Shown here piece after piece: positions 16,131 through 62,548 of a stretch of 64,000 nucleotides of DNA. The number at the start of each line of letters is the position of its first letter. The stretch's first letter is position 1. This stretch comes from Glaucostegus cemiculus (Eukaryota): positions 22,134,001 through 22,198,000 of the forward strand of contig CDPCPM010000114.1 in assembly GCA_976551045.1 (NCBI GenBank), read 5' to 3'. The notes beneath the pieces are model-generated. The model was given only the letters and a program-made list of their open reading frames with translations, was not told where the DNA came from and did not search any database. The position numbers and the translations under genes were made by a program.

Positions 16131-16798
16131 AGCAATGACTTAATCATCAAAGCTCAAATACCAAAAATTAAAATTCCAATAAAATAAGATTCAAATCAAC
16201 TAAAACTTCAATAATTTAGCACCCTTGGGATCCTGGAAAACATGGACTACTGCTGGTGACTGTACACTAATCGGCCAGCAATAATTGTTGCTCTAACCTC
16301 AAAGCACTCCTCCCAGTCCAAAGGTTTGAGTGGTCCAATCTGAAATCTTACCTTGGGGCAAAGATATTGCTGCTTTATATATTAAAATTTATGCCTGCCT
16401 GTTAGGTCAATCTCTGGCTCAGTTAACCCTGTGATGCTTTTGACTGATCCAAACATTTCTAAACACTGCTGCAACACTCACAGCAGAAACATCTTACACT
16501 TGCGGTTTAGTAGTTTCTTCTTACTGGTTAGATAGGAGTCAATACAAACTCGCACTAAATCTGTTACATACATTAAATAGGGATTTGTCCATTATCAGGC
16601 AACTAAGAGGAAATTTAATAAAAATGTTGAAAATTAACAATGCGTTTCAATGTATAAGAAGAAACCTTACACTTGCAGGAAGTCAATAACTTGTGGACAC
16701 AGTAATTTTCAAAATGTAATTGAATACTCAGTAGTAATGTAATAAAAAAAAGAAAAATACGTGGATTGGAATTAATTGGTTAGCTCTTTCAAAGATCT

Positions 16799-17208
16799 CT
16801 ATAACTTTTTTTTTAATTCAGAGAAACGGAGCTGACGACATCATATTGTTCTATTTCTATTGAAAATTTTAGCCCAGTTTTTTTTTCCTTGTTTTGTTTT
16901 TTTTTTCTTTTTTAAAATTTATTTTTGGTTTAAGTTACTCTATATTATGATGATTTTTTTTATTGATTTGGTTTTTTTGGGGTTTTTTTCTCTAATTATA
17001 TAACAAATCTTTTTCTTTTCTATCTTTTACATTACACTTATGAACCGAGATTGTTGGAACTTTCTTTTATATATATCATACTTTATTGCTTTTTTTTATG
17101 ATTACCTACGATTGTTACTTGATATTTCTATAATACATGTGTAAACATTGTTGTTATATATCTTAACCTGTATTGATTTGTCATCAATAAAAAAGATTGA
17201 AAAAGAAA
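16799..17208 (+). mobile_element. 5'-truncated L1/Tx1-type 3' UTR insertion
   Basis: 17-bp TSD AGCTCTTTCAAAGATCT (16782-16798 and 17209-17225); T-rich body ending in AATAAA and an A-rich tail. Confidence 0.8.
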
Positions 17209-17272
17209 AGCTCTTTCAAAGATCTTGCACAGCCGAAATGTGCTAAATATCTTCCAGGCGGTACAACTCTAA

Positions 17273-18391
17273 GTAATGAAGATGGCGGCGCACCTGGTTG
17301 CAGCGGCCTCTCCCAGGTCTGTAGTCCTTGTCTTTTTTTGTTAGTCTTCTAGTGTTTTTCTGTGTTTTTTTCTTGTGTGTTCTTTGTTCTTGATGTTTGT
17401 GTGCCGTTTTATGGAGTCGTTGTCGGTACTGTCGGCTCCGACGGCTCGTCAGAGCTCATCGGAGGCGGCAGCGTCTTGAAGGCCCGGGAGCCTCGCGGTG
17501 GCGTCGGGATGCGGGCGGTGAGGGGGCTGCTTGGGCCGGAGGTGGTCGGCCTGCGGGGCTCGAGGCTGTCGGACTGCGGGGCCGGAATTCGGGGCCGGAG
17601 GCCGTCGGACTGCGGGGCCGGAATTCGGGGCCGGAGGCCGTCGGACTGCGGGGCCGGAATTCGGGGCCGGAGGCCGTCGGACTGCGGGGCCGGAATTCGG
17701 GGCCGGAGGCCGTCGGACTGCGGGGCCGGAATTCGGGGCCGGAGGCCGTCGGACTGCGGGGCCGGAATTCGGGGCCGGAGGCCGTCGGACTGCGGGGCCG
17801 GAATTCGGGGCCGGAGGCCGTCGGACTGCGGCGCCGGAATTCGGGGCCGGAGGCCGTCGGACTGCGTGGTCGGAATTCGGGGCCGGAGGCCGTCGGACTG
17901 CGGAGCTGGAATTCGGGGCCGGAGGTCGTCGGACTGCGGAGTCGGAGGCGAAGGAGCCGGGGGTCGTCGGCCTGCGGGGCCGGAGGTGGTCGGACTGTCG
18001 GACTGTGGCCGGAGGTTGTTGATGGTCTGTGGGCCCTGAGGTTGTAGGACTGCGGGGGTTGGAGGTGGTCGTCGGTGCGGGGTGAGGCAGGGGGGCTGTT
18101 AATGTTTTGATGTTTTTGTCCAGGTGTCCTTTATTGTCTTTGATGTCTTTTGCACATGTATACGTGTAAGTGAAAATCGATAAATTGATCCTGAATTTAA
18201 GTTCAATCCCCTTAGTTTTTAAGGTGTAATGATCTGTACTATGCATTCTGCCAAGTGTGTATGTGTCTCTCTGTTGGTTGTTATGTTATTTTTGTATGGG
18301 ACGAGCACCTGAGGAGGACGGTATATCGCTCCTCTGCATACTTTGTATGTATGTGGTTGTGACGATAAAACTGATTCTGATTCTGATTCTG
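17273..18391 (+). mobile_element. Non-autonomous retroposon with a Rex1/Babar-type LINE 3' tail and internal GC-rich VNTR
   Basis: 8-bp TSD AACTCTAA (17265-17272 and 18392-18399); (ATTCTG)n tail; last ~135 bp match the LINE 3' UTR at ~62418-62548. Confidence 0.85.
17571..17940. repeat. 36-bp GC-rich minisatellite, about 10 copies
   Basis: Unit GGACTGCGGGGCCGGAATTCGGGGCCGGAGGCCGTC; first seven copies identical, later ones diverge. Confidence 0.97.
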
Positions 18392-18733
18392 AACTCTAAA
18401 GGTATACCTTTAAACTGATGTACATACTTCTGTCTCAACAGCAATTGTCTTCAATGGACGCCATCATATACAACGTTAAAACTGAAGCAAAATATAGTGA
18501 CAGAACAATGTCCACAACAGCTTACTAGCTGAGGTATGATACAGGTGAAAGCAGCAGGGTGGTGGTGAAAAACATGGGGCAATAGGGAAGACTAAAGGAT
18601 CTACAGTCTACACTGTGAGAAACACAGCACCCAACAGGTTCACTGGAGTGATGTGTCAACTGGTTACACACTAAAAGCACTGAAGGCACAAATAACAATG
18701 ATAGAGCACAGATCTCCATTAAAATGCAATTAC

Positions 18734-18778
18734 CTTTCTTAGTTCCACTGTGACTTCATTTCTGTGCCTTCTCATAGT
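18734..18778 (-). CDS. KPNA3: KPNA3 coding exon 2 (TMRRHRNEVTVELRK)
   Basis: 45-bp exon, ttacag acceptor and gtaatt donor; IBB motif. Confidence 0.95.
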
Positions 18779-20469: not shown

Positions 20470-21600
20470 TCAGAGGGGTGGGGGGGGCACAGGGGGGCCG
20501 GGGAGGGTGGCTGGGGGAGATGCGGGGGGCAGGTGGGGGGGAGGGGAGACACAGGTAGGAGGACGGTGACAGGACGGGGATTTGGGAGCATTGGAGGGGG
20601 AATGGAGGGGTGGAGTAGGAGTGGGGAGTGAGTGGATGGGGTAGGGTTGGGGGTGAGGTAGGAGTGTGGGGATGAGGGGTATGGTAGTGCTAGAGGTGAT
20701 GGGGTGGGAATGGGTGGGGGCCTGGTACTGGGGGGAGAGGAGAGGAGGAGAGAAGGGAGGGGTCCGTTGGGGGAGACAGTGGGGGAGGTTTGGTAGAGAG
20801 ATTGCGGGTGAGGGGGGTGAATGGGGGGGAGAGGATTGGGGGCAGGTGAGGGGATGGTGTAGGGGGTGGGTGAGATCAGGNNNNNNNNNNNNNNNNNNNN
20901 NNNNNNNNNNNNNNNNNNNNNNNNNNNNNNNNNNNNNNNNNNNNNNNNNNNNNNNNNNNNNNNNNNNNNNNNNNNNNNNNNNNNNNNNNNNNNNNNNNNN
21001 NNNNNNNNNNNNNNNNNNNNNNNNNNNNNNNNNNNNNNNNNNNNNNNNNNNNNNNNNNNNNNNNNNNNNNNNNNNNNNNNNNNNNNNNNNNNNNNNNNNN
21101 NNNNNNNNNNNNNNNNNNNNNNNNNNNNNNNNNNNNNNNNNNNNNNNNNNNNNNNNNNNNNNNNNNNNNNNNNNNNNNNNNNNNNNNNNNNNNNNNNNNN
21201 NNNNNNNNNNNNNNNNNNNNNNNNNNNNNNNNNNNNNNNNNNNNNNNNNNNNNNNNNNNNNNNNNNNNNNNNNNNNNNNNNNNNNNNNNNNNNNNNNNNN
21301 NNNNNNNNNNNNNNNNNNNNNNNNNNNNNNNNNNNNNNNNNNNNNNNNNNNNNNNNNNNNNNNNNNNNNNNNTGGTGGAAGAGGTGGGGAGAGGGAATGG
21401 GAGAGGTGGAGAGAGGGAATGGGAGAGGGAATGGGAGAGGTGGGGAGAGGGAATGGGAGAGGTGGGGAGAGGGAATGGGAGAGGTGGGGAGAGGGAATGG
21501 GAGAGGTGGGGAGAGGGAATGGGAGAGGTGGGGAGAGGGAATGGGAGAGGTGGGGAGAGGGAATGGGAGAGGTGGGGAGAGGGAATGGGAGAGGGGATGG
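20470..21600 (+). repeat. G-rich low-complexity tract and 22-bp tandem repeat flanking an N gap (20881-21372)
   Basis: Unit GGGAGAGGGAATGGGAGAGGTG, about 10 copies right of the gap; dense G-runs left of it. Confidence 0.92.
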
Positions 21601-22850: not shown

Positions 22851-23314
22851 GTAAGTTGTTCTGCCTCAGTGTAAGGCGGCTAAAGTGCCCTTTTTTTGCC
22901 TCGCATCCCTTAAGGTAATTTGCTGTTTGGGGGATATTTTCCCGCGTGTAAGAAAGATGGGTTAGAAACAAGGCACATGAAGAATCCTCACCACTGCATC
23001 TATGTAGATGGGAATAGGTTTCATTTTACAAAGCGGGTTTTGTAACCTCGGAATTTCGAGAGAAGTGAAGCACATCTGAATACACGTACTGTTATAACGC
23101 AGCAGATGTGACCAGGACCCGCAATATATAGTCTGTTTTAATGATCTGAAGGAGAAACATCAACTCGGAGACACGGCTCTTCCAAAAATAAGGTACACTC
23201 AGAGCTATGTAGTGCCAAGTTCCCTCGGTATTTCACTGTCACACTCCTGTGCTCAAGTCACTAGAGTGGGACCATCCCACAAGCGGCTGACTTTCAGTGA
23301 AAAGGCTAAATTTG

Positions 23315-23835
23315 TAAATTGATTTATTATTGTCACATGTACCAAGGTACAGTGAAAAAATTTGTTTTGCATGTCATCCATAGAGATCATTTCATCACAT
23401 CAGTACATCAAGGTAGTACAAGGGAAAACAATAACAGAATAAAGTGTTATGGTTACAGAGAAAGTGTGGTGCAGGTAGGCAAGTTCATAACGAGGTAGAT
23501 TGTGAGGTCAAGAGTCCATTCTTACATTACTGGAGGACTGTTCAATGGTCTTATAACAGTGGGATAGTAGCTGTCTTTGAACCTGGTGGTACGTGCTTTC
23601 AGGCTTTTGTATCTTCTAGGAAGGGGTGGGGGGGGGAGAGAGAATGTCTCGGGTGGGTGGGGTCTTTGATTATGTTGGCTGCTTCACCAAGGCAGCAAGA
23701 AGTGTAGGCAGATTCCATGGAGGGATGGCTGTTTTCCGTGATGTGCTGAGCTGTGTCCACAACTCTGCAGTTTCTTACAGTCTAGGGCAGAGCAGCTGCC
23801 GTACCAAGCATGATGCATCTGGATAGGATGCTTTC
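23315..23835 (-). mobile_element. Rex1/Babar-type LINE 3' fragment
   Basis: AWYGSCSALDCKKLQ motif on the minus strand; 3' UTR resembles 5690-5815. Confidence 0.75.
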
Positions 23836-24836
23836 TAGGCAGACACTGAAGCTGAACTCTGTATAAGACATCTTTGCTCCTGTGCTCAATCACTATTTGA
23901 AATAATACTCCGCCTTTCTGTTTTCCTAGTAAAGGGGGGAACTTCACTTTTGTCCATGTTAGGTTTCATCTTCCATGGATTTGCCCACTCATCCAACTTG
24001 TCTAAGTCACTGTGAGTCTCTGCATCCTCCTCATAACTTTAAATCCCAAGCATTTTCATTTCATCAGCAAATTTAGACATACAGGCTGGCTCCAGGTTAC
24101 AAAGACCCAACTGATGGACACCCGCACATATGAACAAGCTCCTGTAATATTACTCAAAGGTCCATTGCTCCCTCATCCATTGATGTACATTCTGAGTGGC
24201 TGGGCTCCTGCAGTACTCAACTAGTTGACATTAGCTAGTCCAAGAAGACCCATTTATTCCTGCTCTTTGTTTTATATCTGTCAACTGCTCTTCAGTCCAT
24301 GCCAGTATTCTAACCCTAATGGCATACAAGGATGTCAGTAAGCAAATTGAAGCTGACAAGCAACATCACTGAAATATGATAGTGCAATGACATTAATGAA
24401 ATGATATTCATGGTGAATAAACTTACTTAAAGAGGGCTATCAAATCTACATATGCTAATTATAGTTAAACATATTTAGTACTTTTTTACATTTATGTGTT
24501 TACAGCAAATTAATTTAGTTCTCTTTCTTGAATGTGGGTATAGTAATGTTTAGTATATTTGAACAGGAAACTGTGGAATGAGTTGTTTTTTGTAGTTGAG
24601 CAAGATGTAAATATTACAACATATTAAAGGTACTTTTCCCTGTTATCCATTGAGGTTATTATCAGTTAATTAATTATGATGCTGTCTCCAGGAACTAGTG
24701 AAAGATAATGTTTAAGATTGGACCTAATCTTGCTCACCTGCTTCTTGAGAAGATCAGAGTGACATGAAATGTATTGGAATGTCTTAACTCACTTTGCAAC
24801 AAGTAAAATTAATGTTACTTTTGTATTGTATTGCAG

Positions 24837-24906: not shown

Positions 24907-25860
24907 GTAAGTTCTCGATTGGAAATTACTGGTCAGCAAAATAAGCTTGATCTCACCAAGACAGTGGAATCTGTAGGATCTTTTGTGTTTTACAAAGAGA
25001 AGTAACAGAGCAGACCAATCAACAGAACACCTTTTGTTGCAAACATTAAATTAATAGCAGTGCCTGATACAACAATGTATCAAACATCGCCATGTGGTAA
25101 TCTCTAGTTTTATGTACACTTACACATATACACTGCTTTCTCTGTATTTTTCTGAAAAAAGTAATCAACCAGTTGCCTATATCTTGTACTACAATCAATT
25201 CACTATTTACGTCAATGTGTAATTGGAAGTTCAACCAACTGTGAATTCATTTGATCCGTGTTCACTGAACTCGTCATCTTCAACCAATGATAATCCCTGT
25301 GGATCAGGTTTCCATCTCTGTGCAACACACAAAATACTAGAGGAACTCAACAGATCAGGTAGTATCTCTGGACGGAAATGGACAGTCGACGTTTCGGATC
25401 AAGATCCTTCATCTTGCGATGTTATCTCCTCTGACTCTGCTTTTCTGCATCTAATCTGCTGCGATGGTTTCCAGTCTGCCTCACTGCCTCCTACACAGTA
25501 TCAGGTCCAGACCTAATGCAACATCCTTCATAGCATCTTCAGATTTTTGGAACTGCTTCTACAATGCAAATGCAGAGGTAGCTCTATCAACAGAACAACC
25601 TGTATTGAAGCAGTGAACTCTCAGTTAATGTCAGTACCTGGTACAACAATGTATCACAAATCATGATACACTCAGTTCATAAAGGCACACTTACATTTAC
25701 ATTTACATTCACTACACAGGCTAATCTGACTGCTGCCTCCAGCATTTTCCACCTGTATATTAAACCATTTTTCTCCTGCCCAGTAACACCTTGTTATGTT
25801 TCACTCACAGCGAATGTGTCATTGGTGTGTCTGCACATGCGTAGGTTGATGCAGGTATAA

Positions 25861-26049
<189 letters not shown>

Positions 26050-26934: not shown

Positions 26935-27156
26935 ATCTCCTGTCCAGTAACAGCCTTGTTATGTTTCACTAACAGTGAATGTGTCATTTGTGTGTCTGCA
27001 CATGTGTGGGTTGAAGCAGGTATAATTCCAGGTATGGATTCTACTACTGGGTTTACCATCTATGTGCTTCTAGGACAAGAGTATGGAAAAGCAGATGAAA
27101 GGTGGCTTTATTCAGATCTTACCATTGTATCGTTAGAAATTCTTACACTGGTGATG
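26935..27156 (+). pseudogene. Partial duplicate of EBPL intron 2 end plus 5' part of exon 3 (pseudo-exon)
   Basis: Colinear with ~25771-25990; translates [26 protein letters not shown]; acceptor AG retained at 27072-27073. Confidence 0.85.
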
Positions 27157-27878
27157 GTAACAGTGGTACATGCCTGACATTTACTATGCAAAAGAACTGT
27201 ACATTTATTTCCAGCCGATATGCACAACATGGATTACCTTTAATAGTATAACCAAACACCGTGTGGTTATTCTGTTTAAAGAAAATGCAGTGAAAGGTTA
27301 AAATAGAAAAAAGACATAGGTGAATATGTGTCATACTCCAGCATTTGGCTCATTAAATTTTCAGATTGATAGATAATCTTTTGGCTGCTTTGGAACATTC
27401 AGCAACATTTCTGTGGGTGCCAGCTGCAAATGGTGTAGGCTGAGAATGTAAACTAAGAATCTCTGAAAAGCAGCAAGATTCCCAATTCCTTCATCAAGCA
27501 GGAATTCTTGAAGCGCTCAGCAGGTCAGGCAGCAGTGGGGGTGGGGGGGAAGGAGAGGGTGGAGGGAGAGGAGAATCAGAACCAATAATTAAGGTTGATT
27601 ATTTTTCTACATTTCACCAGGACTAGAGGAGCTTAAGGGACAAACAGATTTTATGCAAATACGAAGCCAGGCAGCTTGCATTTCCAAGCAGCAGAAATGT
27701 AAGATGTCTGTGGTATCTCAGAACCTTGCCTTCCATTCTTTTCCTCTTCCTGCACCACTTCACCTCCTCATCCAACTGAAATGTTAGTTCTGTCTCCAGA
27801 GATTTCTTCCATTCCACTGTTTTTCTCTTTCCATTTTTCAGTGCATCTTGTTTTCTTCATATGTTGCTAAGTAAATAA

Positions 27879-33964: not shown

Positions 33965-35507
33965 TCTTCAAAAGGGCATCAATCATACTGGTGCCCAAGA
34001 AGAGCAGGGTGAGCTGCCCCAATGACTATCACCCGGTAGCACTCACATCTACTGTGATGAACTGCTTTGAGAGGTTGGTCATTGCTAGAATTAACTCCTG
34101 CCTGAGTAAGGAACGGGACCCACTGCAATTTGCCCACCTCCACAACAGGTCTGCAGCAGATGCAATCTCCCTGGCTCTTCCCTCGGCTTTCTGGCACCTA
34201 GACAACAGCAAAACATGTGTCAGGCTGCTGTTCATTGATTACAGCTCGGTGTTCAACACCATTGTCTGCTCAGTACTAATCAACAATCTTCAAAACCTGG
34301 GCCTCTCTACCTCCCTCTGTAACTGGATCCTTGACTTTCTTCACAAGATAATGGAGCAGAAGCAGGCCACTCGGCCCATCGAGTCTGCTCCAAAGGGAAG
34401 GGAGGGTGGGGAAATAAGAGGGAAAAAGAGGATGAAAAAGAATGAGAAAAAAAACTATTCTCCATATCCCTTGACACCTCGACCAATTAGATATCTATCT
34501 ATTTCCTTCTTGAATATCCTCTTTTCAGGAGACCACAGTGAGGACTGGTAAATAACATCTCCTCTTCTCTGACAATTAACACAGATGCACCTCAAGGATG
34601 CGTGCTTAGCCCACTGCTCTACTCTCTCTACACTCATTACTGTGTGGCTGGGCACAGCTCAAGCACCATCTATAAATTCGCCAATGACACGACTGTTGTT
34701 GGCAGAATCTCAGATGGCGACAGGAGTGAGATAGATTGGCTGGTTGAGTGGTATCACAACAACAACCTCACACTCAATGTCAGCAAGACCAAGGAATTGA
34801 TTGTGGACTTCAGGAAGGGGAAGTTGGGAGAACACACACCAGTCCTCATTGAGGGGTCAGCGGTGGAAAGGCTGAGCAGCTTCAAGTTCCTGGGCGTCAA
34901 CATCTCAGAGGATCTCTCCTGGGCCCAAAATGTTGATGCAGTTACAAAGAAGGTACGCCAATGGCTCTGCTCCATTAGGAGCTTGAGGACACTTGGTACG
35001 TTACCAAAGACTCTTGTAAATTTCTATAGATGTACAGTGGAGACTATCCTAACTGGTTGCATCACTGCCTGGTATGGAGGCTCCAATGTGCAGGACTGAA
35101 AGAAACTGAAGAGGGTTATAGACTCAGCCAGCTCCATCTTGGGCACAACCTCTTCCACCCCCCCCCCCCCCCCCAAACTATCAAGGACATCTTCAAGACG
35201 CAGTGCCTCAAGAAGGCAGCATCCATCATTAAGAACCCTCACCATCCGGGACATACCCTCTTCTCATTACCACCATCGGGAGGAGGTACAGGAGCTTGAA
35301 GACTCGCACTCAATGTTTCAGGAACAGTTTTATCCCCCTCCACCATCAGATTTCTGAATGGTCCATTAACTCTACCTTGTTATTCCTCTTTTGCAGTATT
35401 TTATTTATTTTTTGTAACTTATAGTAATTTTTATGCATTGAACTGTACTACTGCCGCAAAACAACAAATTTCATGATGTATGTTAGTGATAATAAATCTG
35501 ATTCTGA
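33965..35507 (+). mobile_element. Rex1/Babar-type LINE, 5'-truncated
   Basis: NDYHPVALTS, LLFIDYSSVFNTI, LSPLLYSLYT, KFANDT, KTKELIVDFR motifs; ATTCTG tail. Confidence 0.9.
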
Positions 35508-37409
35508 TATCCATTCAAGCTGGTCCCATTTGCCAGTGTTTGGCCCATAACCTTCTAAACCTTTCCTATCCATGTACCTGTCCAACTGTTTTTTTTAAAG
35601 TTGTTATCATACCTGCCTCAACCACTTCCTCTGGCAGCTCATTCCACATACATACCACCCTTTGTGTAGAAAAAAGTTGCCCTTCAAGTTACTATTAAAT
35701 CTTTCTCCTCTCAAGAACTTCATTAGAAGGACTTCAGCAGTTCAGGAAGGTGGCTCACCACCAACTTCACAATGGCAATAAGGAATTGGCAATTGGCAAT
35801 TCCTTGGCAGCAATGCTCAGACCCCCCCAATAAATAAATAATTATAAAAATAATATTTTCTGTAAAATAATCATGAATGATTGAATGATTATTCATTGAC
35901 TTAAACAAATTAGGTGAAATTGGCAACATTTATGTCACAGATCTGATTTCAGTAAAGGCATATATAAATGATATAGACTCAAATGTAGGGTTTCTAATTA
36001 AGAAGTTTGCCATTGATACCTAAATTGGCAATGTTTTTGATAGTAGGAATTAAAGTAAGCTACAGGAAGATATCAACCTACTGGTTAGCTGGGGGCCAAC
36101 AGAGTAATGTGAGGCGAGGTATCTGGGAAGATGAAACAAGGTGAGGGAATGCGATGACGTACAGTCAGAATCTTTTCCCCAGGGTAGAAATGTCAAATAT
36201 TGGAGGCATTAATTTAAAGTGAAAGGAGGAAAGTTTTTTTTAAAACAGAGAGTGGTAGGTGCCTATAATGGGCTGCCGGGGGTAATGGTGGAAGCAGATA
36301 GTGGTGATAGTGGGTGTTTACAAGGCTTTTTGATAGGCAAATGGATATGCAGAGAATGGAAGGATATGGATCATGTACAGGCAGAAGAGTTTTACTTTGA
36401 TTTGCAGTTTGGGCTGAAGGGCCTATTCCTGGGCTGTACTGTTCTATAATAAATGATAGAATAGTACAAAGTACATCAAGTTTATGAGCAGAGGGATCTT
36501 CACCTGAATGACCATTTGAAAGTTGTACACAGGGTTTCAACCCAAAATGTTGACAATTCCTTTCCTCCCACAGATGCTGCTCGATTTGCTGACTTCCTCC
36601 AGCAGATTGTTTGTTCCTCCAGATTCCAGCATCTGCAGTCATGTGACAATATTGAGTGTATCATCCGAGGGCTCTAAACTTAAGTCAAGACTTTAGGTTC
36701 TATCTGGCAATAAATATCTGTGAGGACCATCACTATTGGGAGATTATACTGTATCAACCTACGCTTCAAGGATAAGTTTACTTCACTACTTTAGTTGAGA
36801 GAGAGAGGTCTAGCTGCCAATGATCAATATTTCAAGCAGAGGGTCCCTCCTCCCAACTAATGAGAAGATACTTCCAGCTAACGAAGCAGTTTAAACACAG
36901 TTTATTTTATTTTAAGCAAGACATGTTTAATTCTAATAACTAATTTTTAACAATGATTTTTAACTTACAAAGGATTTCCAAACACAAGTATAATGCTTAC
37001 ATACCAACAAGCTGCAGACGAACAAGTAGTCCATTGCAAAAACCAAAGGCTGGGGAATGAATACTGGGTCTTCTTTCTGTAACCCCTTCTCATTGTCATT
37101 TCCCTACCCTGCCTGCTTTCTAATGTTTATACTGTTTTTTCACTTAGTTGTCATCATTGGCATGTGATGTTTTTTCAACCACATTTTCAGGCCAAGTGTC
37201 TGGAGTGTTATAATTAAGTAAATGTGGATCCCATTGTTCTCTTGTTTATGTTAAATGGCTGAGCAGGGAATATTGGTTAGAAGTTTAACTTCACAAACAA
37301 GAAACATCTTGAGCCTTGGACAATTTCTGCTGTTTTTGCAAAAGGGATTTTAGTTTGACCTTTGGATAGGTCCTGCTGCTGTGCTAAAAAGCTGAGGTTC
37401 GCAATAAGC

Positions 37410-38299: not shown

Positions 38300-38790
38300 G
38301 GCCTTGGGACGTCTCTCCAGACTCCGCATCGATCAGCGGTACAACTCTGGGGACAAGCAGCGACCGGCCCGGGGACCTACCCTCACGGTGAGTGCCGAGC
38401 GCTGGATGAATCGATGCGAGCCTCAGTCGGCGGGCCGGCTCCGCCCTGATGGAACGTTGCCCGGGAGGGGAGGCGTCCGGCGGCGCGCGGCGGCGATCTT
38501 GTCCAGGAAATGCTCGGTAATGCGGCCTCTCTCTTTCCTTGCACTCGCCCAGTAAAATATAACGTTAGATATGATTGTTGTGGTGACAATTTGCCGAGAT
38601 AACTATTTTGTGATGACCTTTCAACCCCAGCCCTCATGTTTGGAGGAACGTCACAAGACGAGTCCCGGGAGGAGGCAGGGAGCTGAGCCCAGCTCCGGAA
38701 TCGCGTCGCAGTCTTCACCGTTTAAGTGCCGCTGGTGCTGCCAGTTGGCTTTGCTTTCCGTGTTGAATTAACTTCACGAGTCATATTCTT
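38300..38790 (+). promoter_or_regulatory. CpG island, probable RCBTB1 promoter and non-coding first exon
   Basis: Isolated CpG-rich block 3.5-4 kb upstream of the ATG exon; candidate donors ACG|GTGAGT (38387/38388) and TCG|GTAATG (38516/38517). Confidence 0.6.
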
Positions 38791-62009: not shown

Positions 62010-62548
62010 AATGTGACCTTCCTATCCCTCCAGAAGATAGTTAAGGCTGCGGAGTGGATCATAGGTGTCTCGCTTCCATCCCTCGCAGACATATACAAAG
62101 ACCGTTGTGTGAGGAAGACCAAAAGCATAATGGCCGACCCCTCTCACCCCTCCCACCACCTCTTCACAATTTTGCCATCAGGGAGGAGGCTTAAATGTAT
62201 CAGGGCAAGAACGTCCAGGCTGAACAAAAGCTTCTTTCCGCAAGCCATAAGAACTGCAAACTCTCTCATCCCTCCATCTTCCTTTGTTAACACTAGGAGA
62301 TGCTAGGTGCACAGAAATGCACCAGCACTCCAAATGCCTGGCACCAGCCCGTTCACTTTAAGATATATTTATGTAAGAACTAATGGGTAATGTTTTGTAC
62401 TGTGTATTTTTGTACTGTGTATGTGTCTCTCTGTTGGTTGTTATGTTATTCTTTTCTATGAGACGTGTTCCTGTGGAGGACGATATCTCGCTCCTATGCG
62501 TACCATGTATGTATATGGTTGTGACAATAAAACTGATTCTGATTCTGA
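62010..62548 (+). mobile_element. Rex1/Babar-type LINE 3' end
   Basis: DPSHPSHHLFTILPSGRR...RTSRLNKSFFPQAIR C-terminus, then AATAAA and an (ATTCTG)n tail. Confidence 0.9.

Follow-up and report, generated by a model that had tools for sequence, protein, structure and literature searches.

A probable many-copy family of non-autonomous retroposons with two Rex1/Babar-type LINE ends and a GC-rich minisatellite body in Glaucostegus cemiculus

The insertion described here is probably one of many copies of a non-autonomous retroposon family in which two Rex1/Babar-type LINE ends enclose a GC-rich minisatellite body, a reading to which a probability of about 0.68 is assigned. The element would have kept the first ~130 nt of a LINE, which include the start codon and a promoter-like terminal module, and its final ~170 nt, made up of the 3′ UTR and a microsatellite tail, while the endonuclease and RT coding region would have been lost. 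The space between the ends would have been taken by a GC-rich minisatellite that is absent from known LINE sequences and in which a 36-bp unit seems to have expanded recently. Judging from LINE biology, transcription by RNA polymerase II would start at the terminal module; an autonomous Rex1 relative would supply the protein that binds the 3′ UTR of this transcript in trans, the 8-bp duplication at the borders would stem from target-primed reverse transcription, and slippage would drive the length of the VNTR. The clade name Rex1/Babar is presumed from protein motifs.

Results

Borders and setting of the insertion

Within the 64,000-nt stretch of DNA analysed here (the window), the same 8-mer stands on both sides of 1,119 bp and forms an 8-bp target-site duplication (TSD), as the earlier note on this DNA had reported; an 8-mer repeat falls by chance into a 38-bp interval ~1.1 kb upstream in 0.08% of 20,000 random draws. 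The insert consists, in order, of a head, a CpG-rich VNTR with a 36-bp unit, a Rex1/Babar-type 3′ UTR and (ATTCTG)3, and the presence of both a TSD and a simple-repeat tail fits insertion by target-primed reverse transcription. It sits in intron 2 of an importin-alpha gene, in antisense orientation; the gene was recognised by the match of exon 1 to importin alpha and is taken here to be KPNA3. The features are as follows.

17265..17272 (+), 5′ copy of the TSD, by 8-mer match
17273..17278 (+), six bases before the conserved motif, by their sequence either the 5′ end of the family or untemplated
17279..17314 (+), putative Rex1 5′-terminal module of 36 nt, a YY1-like motif including the start codon (17282) and then a second conserved block
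17282..17410 (+), T-rich putative remnant of the first ~43 Rex1 codons, the best window match of the N-terminal profile
17411..17537 (+), GC-rich left body, free of Rex1 similarity and weakly like the right body
17538..17958 (+), CpG-rich VNTR with about 11 copies of a 36-bp unit, in which 13 bp are added to a 23-bp monomer
17959..18098 (+), degenerate repeats of 23-39 bp built on the VNTR monomer; their score against the 36-bp unit is reached in 0 of 300 shuffles
18099..18219 (+), T-rich linker, not alignable to the upstream 3′ UTR of the 62-kb LINE (261 of 300 shuffles as high)
18220..18391 (+), Rex1-type 3′ UTR ending in (ATTCTG)3, by similarity to the 62-kb LINE
18392..18399 (+), 3′ copy of the TSD, by 8-mer match
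18734..18778 (-), host gene exon 2, 334 bp from the element, which lies antisense in the next intron
62025..62548 (+), 5′-truncated Rex1/Babar-type LINE of ~530 bp, C-terminal 80 codons and 3′ UTR

The distance and orientation thus agree with the ~340 bp, antisense to exon 2 of the presumed KPNA3, that the note had given. The proposal of the note that the element adds a new CpG island near the gene may hold, but any effect on the host gene is probably small. A canonical polyadenylation hexamer is present within the element at 18130-18135 (-), in the sense direction of the host gene, and the gene's own CpG island is located at ~21.6-22.9 kb.

The 5′ terminus

The head motif is found at 17279-17289, where the earlier note had placed it, and its 9-mer core occurs once in the window without mismatch. 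The same motif, composed of the YY1-like block, eight variable bases and a second GC-rich block, is present at seven of 16 fish Rex1 loci, which are DNA of other fishes in metagenome contigs, and sits there upstream of the endonuclease region; of the other nine loci, five lack upstream DNA, two have only the second (3′) block and two appear to be 5′-truncated. In locus L002, 28 of the 36 bases of the module are shared with the element, where the module can be folded as a small hairpin. The start codon lies within the terminal motif at L001:427, L002:36, L005:691, L009:63, L013:346, L014:2539 and L016:2754. These seven loci were chosen by eye with the motif already in mind, yet its position is independent of that choice, since it precedes a conserved Tyr-x-Arg motif by 105-143 nt and is in frame with it in six of the seven. 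A matrix built from six of the loci, with one near-duplicate dropped and the element excluded, ranks 17279 first among 127,928 positions with 41.5 bits, the runner-up reaching 12.6, and leave-one-out scores range from 11.6 to 39.4 bits. An alignment of two copies from one fish Rex1 family begins at the motif itself, so that the motif marks the LINE terminus.

The protein comparison leads to the same site. N-terminally complete proteins of this LINE type were gathered and 30 of the 120 listed were aligned; a Met-Ala-Ala start is found in 34 of 119 Rex1 proteins. A profile of 32 Met-Ala-Ala N-termini has its best match in the window at 17282, with an E-value of 2e-4 with the composition correction off and 0.089 at the next site. 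By this match the ATG at 17282 is the Rex1 start codon, and the ORF remnant in this copy runs into a stop after 20 codons. The Ala at codon 2 is encoded by GCG in six of the seven loci versus 16 of 159 Ala codons in the ORF bodies, an excess which argues that the motif is probably constrained at the nucleic-acid level too. The 5′ hairpin across both blocks is a lead only: its covariation score is 0.247 against 0.143 +/- 0.026 (0 of 500 shuffles as high), with three pairs changed on both sides against 1.7 (77 of 500 shuffles), for nine related sequences from which the structure itself was derived.

On sequence grounds, the head is thus the Rex1 LINE's own 5′ terminus together with its first codons, the match being at the level of the clade. 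The YY1 label that the note had given to the motif is plausible and YY1 may bind here, but these bases also surround the start codon of Rex1. Mammalian L1s open with a YY1 site that has this core, according to the accessible text of PMC5381506. The 30-base head has no match in viral or metagenome contigs, and protein scans for Rex1 in viral contigs gave none; a degenerate search with the head returned no viral and three bacterial matches, none of which extends past the motif, and these were set aside as chance. As an observation in its own right, fish Rex1-type LINEs appear to be nearly devoid of a 5′ UTR, with the start codon within the first few bases, inside the YY1-like motif and a possible hairpin; no description of this was found in the accessible parts of the literature examined.

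The GC-rich body

The array contains nine full 36-bp units (17597-17920), six of which are identical and which together show five differences in 324 bp. A 35-bp and a 38-bp imperfect unit add to these and TRF counts 11.9 copies, so that the "ten" repeats of the earlier note are a fair description. The array is embedded in degenerate 23-29-bp repeats from 17538 to 18098, and the score between the left and the right body is reached in two of 300 shuffles. Since the right part is decayed VNTR monomer and the left part weakly resembles the right, the body can be read as an old minisatellite whose 36-bp unit has expanded recently.

Several other origins of the body were considered and rejected. The segment 17411-18098 has no similarity to the Rex1 LINE proteins, which rules out a remnant of the Rex1 ORF. 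A derivation from the CpG island of the host gene is no better than chance (85 of 300 shuffles score as high), and a duplication relating the T-rich stretches is weak (9 of 300). As protein, the body gives one repeat-driven DUF hit in Pfam and none above 0.86 in Atlas. No similarity was detected between the body and the 62-kb LINE, whose 3′ UTR is complete and free of such a GC-rich repeat. All 23 Met-Ala-Ala proteins that could be scored have their next conserved motif at residue 38-45 and their endonuclease at 115-129, a spacing into which a repeat ahead of the endonuclease would not fit, and this favours acquisition of the body.

The 3′ end and its LINE relatives

Positions 18220-18386 match 62381-62548 with 83.4% identity over 169 bp (E 9e-45), including ~35 identical bases in a row, a slightly longer run than the 30 noted earlier, and the (ATTCTG)n end is confirmed as three copies at 18374-18391. 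Sequence similarity marks both ends of the element as LINE-derived. The 80 codons of the 62-kb LINE match 3,173 LINE proteins at E 0.001, and its full-length relatives encode an endonuclease, RVT_1 (RT) and PF09004 in one ORF. The claim in the note that the element was mobilised by this LINE is too strong: being truncated, the 62-kb copy cannot be the driver and is a relative of the presumed one, and the 17% divergence in the 3′ UTR suggests that the two are sister families. Around the 62-kb LINE, no TSD was found. Both tails are compatible with the predicted 3′ stem-loops, with compensatory change in 0 of 32 pairs between these two sequences.

Two more decayed Rex1-type LINE fragments of other families are present in the window at 33967-35508 (+) and ~23300-23850 (-), the former of which likewise closes with an ATTCTG-type tail. 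For another Rex1-type LINE of the window, the closest named protein is from a ray, at 70%, as would suit a cartilaginous fish.

Coding capacity and promoter type

No protein-coding capacity was found in the element, in line with its earlier description as non-autonomous and free of RT sequence. Searches by tblastn gave weak hits from one of 270 and nine of 386 LINE proteins, none better than E 0.004, and there was no in-frame enzyme domain among these matches. The equally early view that the head is not of tRNA origin also holds: the element contains no detectable tRNA and no A or B box, and has no Rfam match under E 1 and none to a known ribozyme family. Runs of T7, T5 and T7 occur within 100 nt, and together with the absence of A and B boxes they make Pol III transcription unlikely. 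The small-RNA head with a Pol III promoter that characterises SINEs is lacking.

Copy number and age

Two public sequencing runs from one sample, which may be that from which the window itself derives, were used, and their contigs, which are short, were compared with the 5′ side only (16300-17532). Position 17451 is covered by 64-69 separate contigs, and second letters, mostly at 9-60%, occur at 18 sites among those listed between 17326 and 17486, which contradicts the single-copy deletion that the earlier note had held open. The summed contig depth is 14,000-51,000 over 17266-17532 against 2.4 on the flank, where the latter value is one contig and most of the unique flank, as well as 17224-17265, has no contig cover; the sum is not a copy number, as overlap of short contigs may inflate it up to an estimated ~30-fold, and the copies would accordingly number from hundreds to tens of thousands. 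The left body is covered as deeply as the head, and the contigs continue into the repeat unit at 17530, so that head and left body are many-copy. The depth does not drop at 17410, where LINE homology ends, and most heads therefore continue into the GC-rich body. The runs contain 72-74% of the sampled words of the element; this exceeds the 61-68% that head plus VNTR could supply and indicates that some tail-side words are present too, which may come from LINE copies. On the reading preferred here, head, body and tail would be linked in other copies as well. No RNA data set is among those listed as sharing words with the element, which has no bearing on its expression.

This copy carries the minority letter at three of the 18 listed sites, one of them a CpG decay. 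The nine VNTR units show decay at one of 45 CpG sites and the CpG o/e is 1.14 in the element against 0.29 in the window, which bears out the little CpG decay noted before; by this measure, the element is young relative to the window background. The molecular clock of elasmobranchs is slow, and this, with homogenisation of the array, precludes a date for the insertion.

Neighbouring features of the window

Only 40 bp upstream of the element, at 16782-17225, a T-rich insertion of 410 bp is bounded by a 17-bp target-site duplication; it is presumably the 3′ end of an L1/Tx1-type LINE, and contigs are several times deeper here than over the head of the element. The segment 52986-55021 combines an LTR (~810 bp), a sequence resembling a primer-binding site and a gag-like ORF of 184 codons, which includes a 27-bp repeat and for which no Pfam family was found. 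It is closed by an inverted partial LTR copy (96.6% over 527 bp) in place of a direct copy, and is flanked in its entirety by a 4-bp duplication, as though it had integrated as a unit. The segments 25772-25993 and 26936-27157 form an 87% identical duplication including an exon of the gene divergent from the presumed KPNA3, which we take to be EBPL-like. Thirteen bases at 38338-38350, in another CpG-rich stretch (38300-38750), repeat, probably by chance, a sequence that reaches from immediately 5′ of the element's target site into the site. An assembly gap of 492 Ns (20881-21372) lies between G-rich repeats just downstream of exon 1 of the host gene.

Discussion

Four alternatives to a many-copy family with two LINE ends and an acquired body were weighed. 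In a pure internal deletion, the parent elasmobranch Rex1 would itself carry the GC-rich body in its 5′ region or 3′ UTR, and the result would still be a bipartite family with nothing acquired. Tandem and low-complexity repeats are frequent in LINE UTRs, according to the accessible text of PMC5381506, and the comparison set includes no full-length elasmobranch Rex1, the two named shark and ray Rex1-type proteins both being partial; the lack of room in all the scorable Met-Ala-Ala proteins and the body-free 3′ UTR of the 62-kb LINE nevertheless make this rather unlikely. An improbable course of events is a local chimera, with a high-copy head plus body joined to a Rex1 tail only here or rarely by template switch. 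The tail diverges from the window LINE as described, the linker matches nothing compared, and the contig comparison concerns the 5′ side; against this, a single TSD encloses the whole, both ends come from one LINE clade, and the word share implies that tail-side words are present.

The SVA-like architecture proposed in the earlier note, with an independently recruited YY1 promoter head and only the LINE tail borrowed, is very improbable and already largely refuted. The 36-bp unit does fall within the 35-50-bp range of SVA (accessible text of PMC5753468), the body matches no LINE sequence compared, and the YY1 motif is shared with the L1s mentioned above, but the Rex1 similarity extends beyond the YY1 9-mer through the second block and the first codons, and the element has no SINE-, ERV- or hexamer-derived parts and no poly(A). 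Scarcely credible, finally, is a deleted LINE that exists only once and in which a minisatellite arose locally; in its favour, no second head was found in the 64-kb window, yet dozens of distinct variant contigs cover the head and left body and run into the repeat unit.

The preferred reading, a many-copy family with two LINE ends, places the element next to the bipartite ORF-less LINEs RIME, NARTc, Bov-A, RTESINE1/2 and RTE-N2_Lch, which in the accessible text of PMC5786205 likewise have both ends of a LINE, no ORF and a presumed Pol II transcript moved in trans. Like theirs, its head stems from a LINE 5′ terminus, and its tail comes from the 3′ terminus of that clade (83% over 169 bp). It differs from them in its Rex1-type parent, outside RTE, Ingi, Vingi and R2, in the ~690-bp non-LINE minisatellite body and in the lack of a match to a known ribozyme family. 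With the Rex1/Babar LINEs it shares the 5′ terminal motif with the start codon and the conserved 3′ UTR with a short oligonucleotide repeat behind it (accessible text of PMC6274825), whereas it lacks their endonuclease and RT. SVA, LAVA, PVA and FVA are also non-coding, CpG-rich and LINE-dependent with a central GC-rich VNTR of 35-50-bp units, as far as the accessible text of PMC5753468 goes; SVA, however, is mobilised by L1 and contains hexamer, Alu- and HERVK-derived parts, whereas the element has both ends from a LINE, a microsatellite tail and no 5′ hexamer array in a tandem repeat scan. The likeness would thus be one of analogy only, with a VNTR in the middle and no homology expected. Rex1 can move other RNAs, as indicated by the sea anemone tRNA SINE with a Rex1 tail, SINE2-5_NV (accessible text of PMC3747384). 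The elasmobranch SINEs HE1, SacSINE1 and the CmiSINEs borrow a LINE 3′ end as the element does (accessible text of PMC5499810); but these and SINE2-5_NV have tRNA heads with A and B boxes, and the shark ones have CR1/L2-type partners, neither of which applies to the element (accessible text of PMC3747384 and PMC5499810).

In the accessible text of Kojima 2018 (PMC5786205), ORF-less bipartite LINEs are reported only for RTE, Ingi, Vingi and R2, and the supplementary text file of that paper does not contain "Rex". A 2020 hagfish paper treats RTE cases only in its accessible text (PMC7245038), and the accessible parts of PMC6274825, PMC4455052 and bioRxiv 10.64898/2026.10.27.761883 do not describe such an element. 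No non-autonomous Rex1 derivative was found in the literature searched, which mostly excluded subscription journals and Repbase Reports. Measured against published descriptions, the element would be a bipartite non-autonomous LINE of a known kind, but with a VNTR body and a parent clade that is not among the listed sources. Skate and ray assemblies are rich in GC-rich repeats of similar build, and an automatic consensus of the element therefore probably exists somewhere.

A further-reaching view can be offered only tentatively. The family may be still active and undescribed, and Rex1 would then be the fifth LINE clade with ORF-less bipartite parasites, and one without a known 5′ ribozyme; the ~36-nt module, with a YY1-like site over the start codon and a hairpin, might act as a self-sufficient promoter, and the length-variable CpG-rich VNTR might have been acquired independently, scattering polymorphic CpG islands through the elasmobranch genome and converging on SVA.

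The accessible text of Kojima 2018 leaves open whether the restriction to four clades reflects sampling bias or a transcriptional need such as a 5′ ribozyme (PMC5786205), and a many-copy Rex1 case bears directly on this question. It also offers a ~36-nt candidate promoter and an example, from outside the primates, of a retroposon with a VNTR. Elements of this sort would also add false CpG islands and spurious repeat ORFs to annotated genomes.
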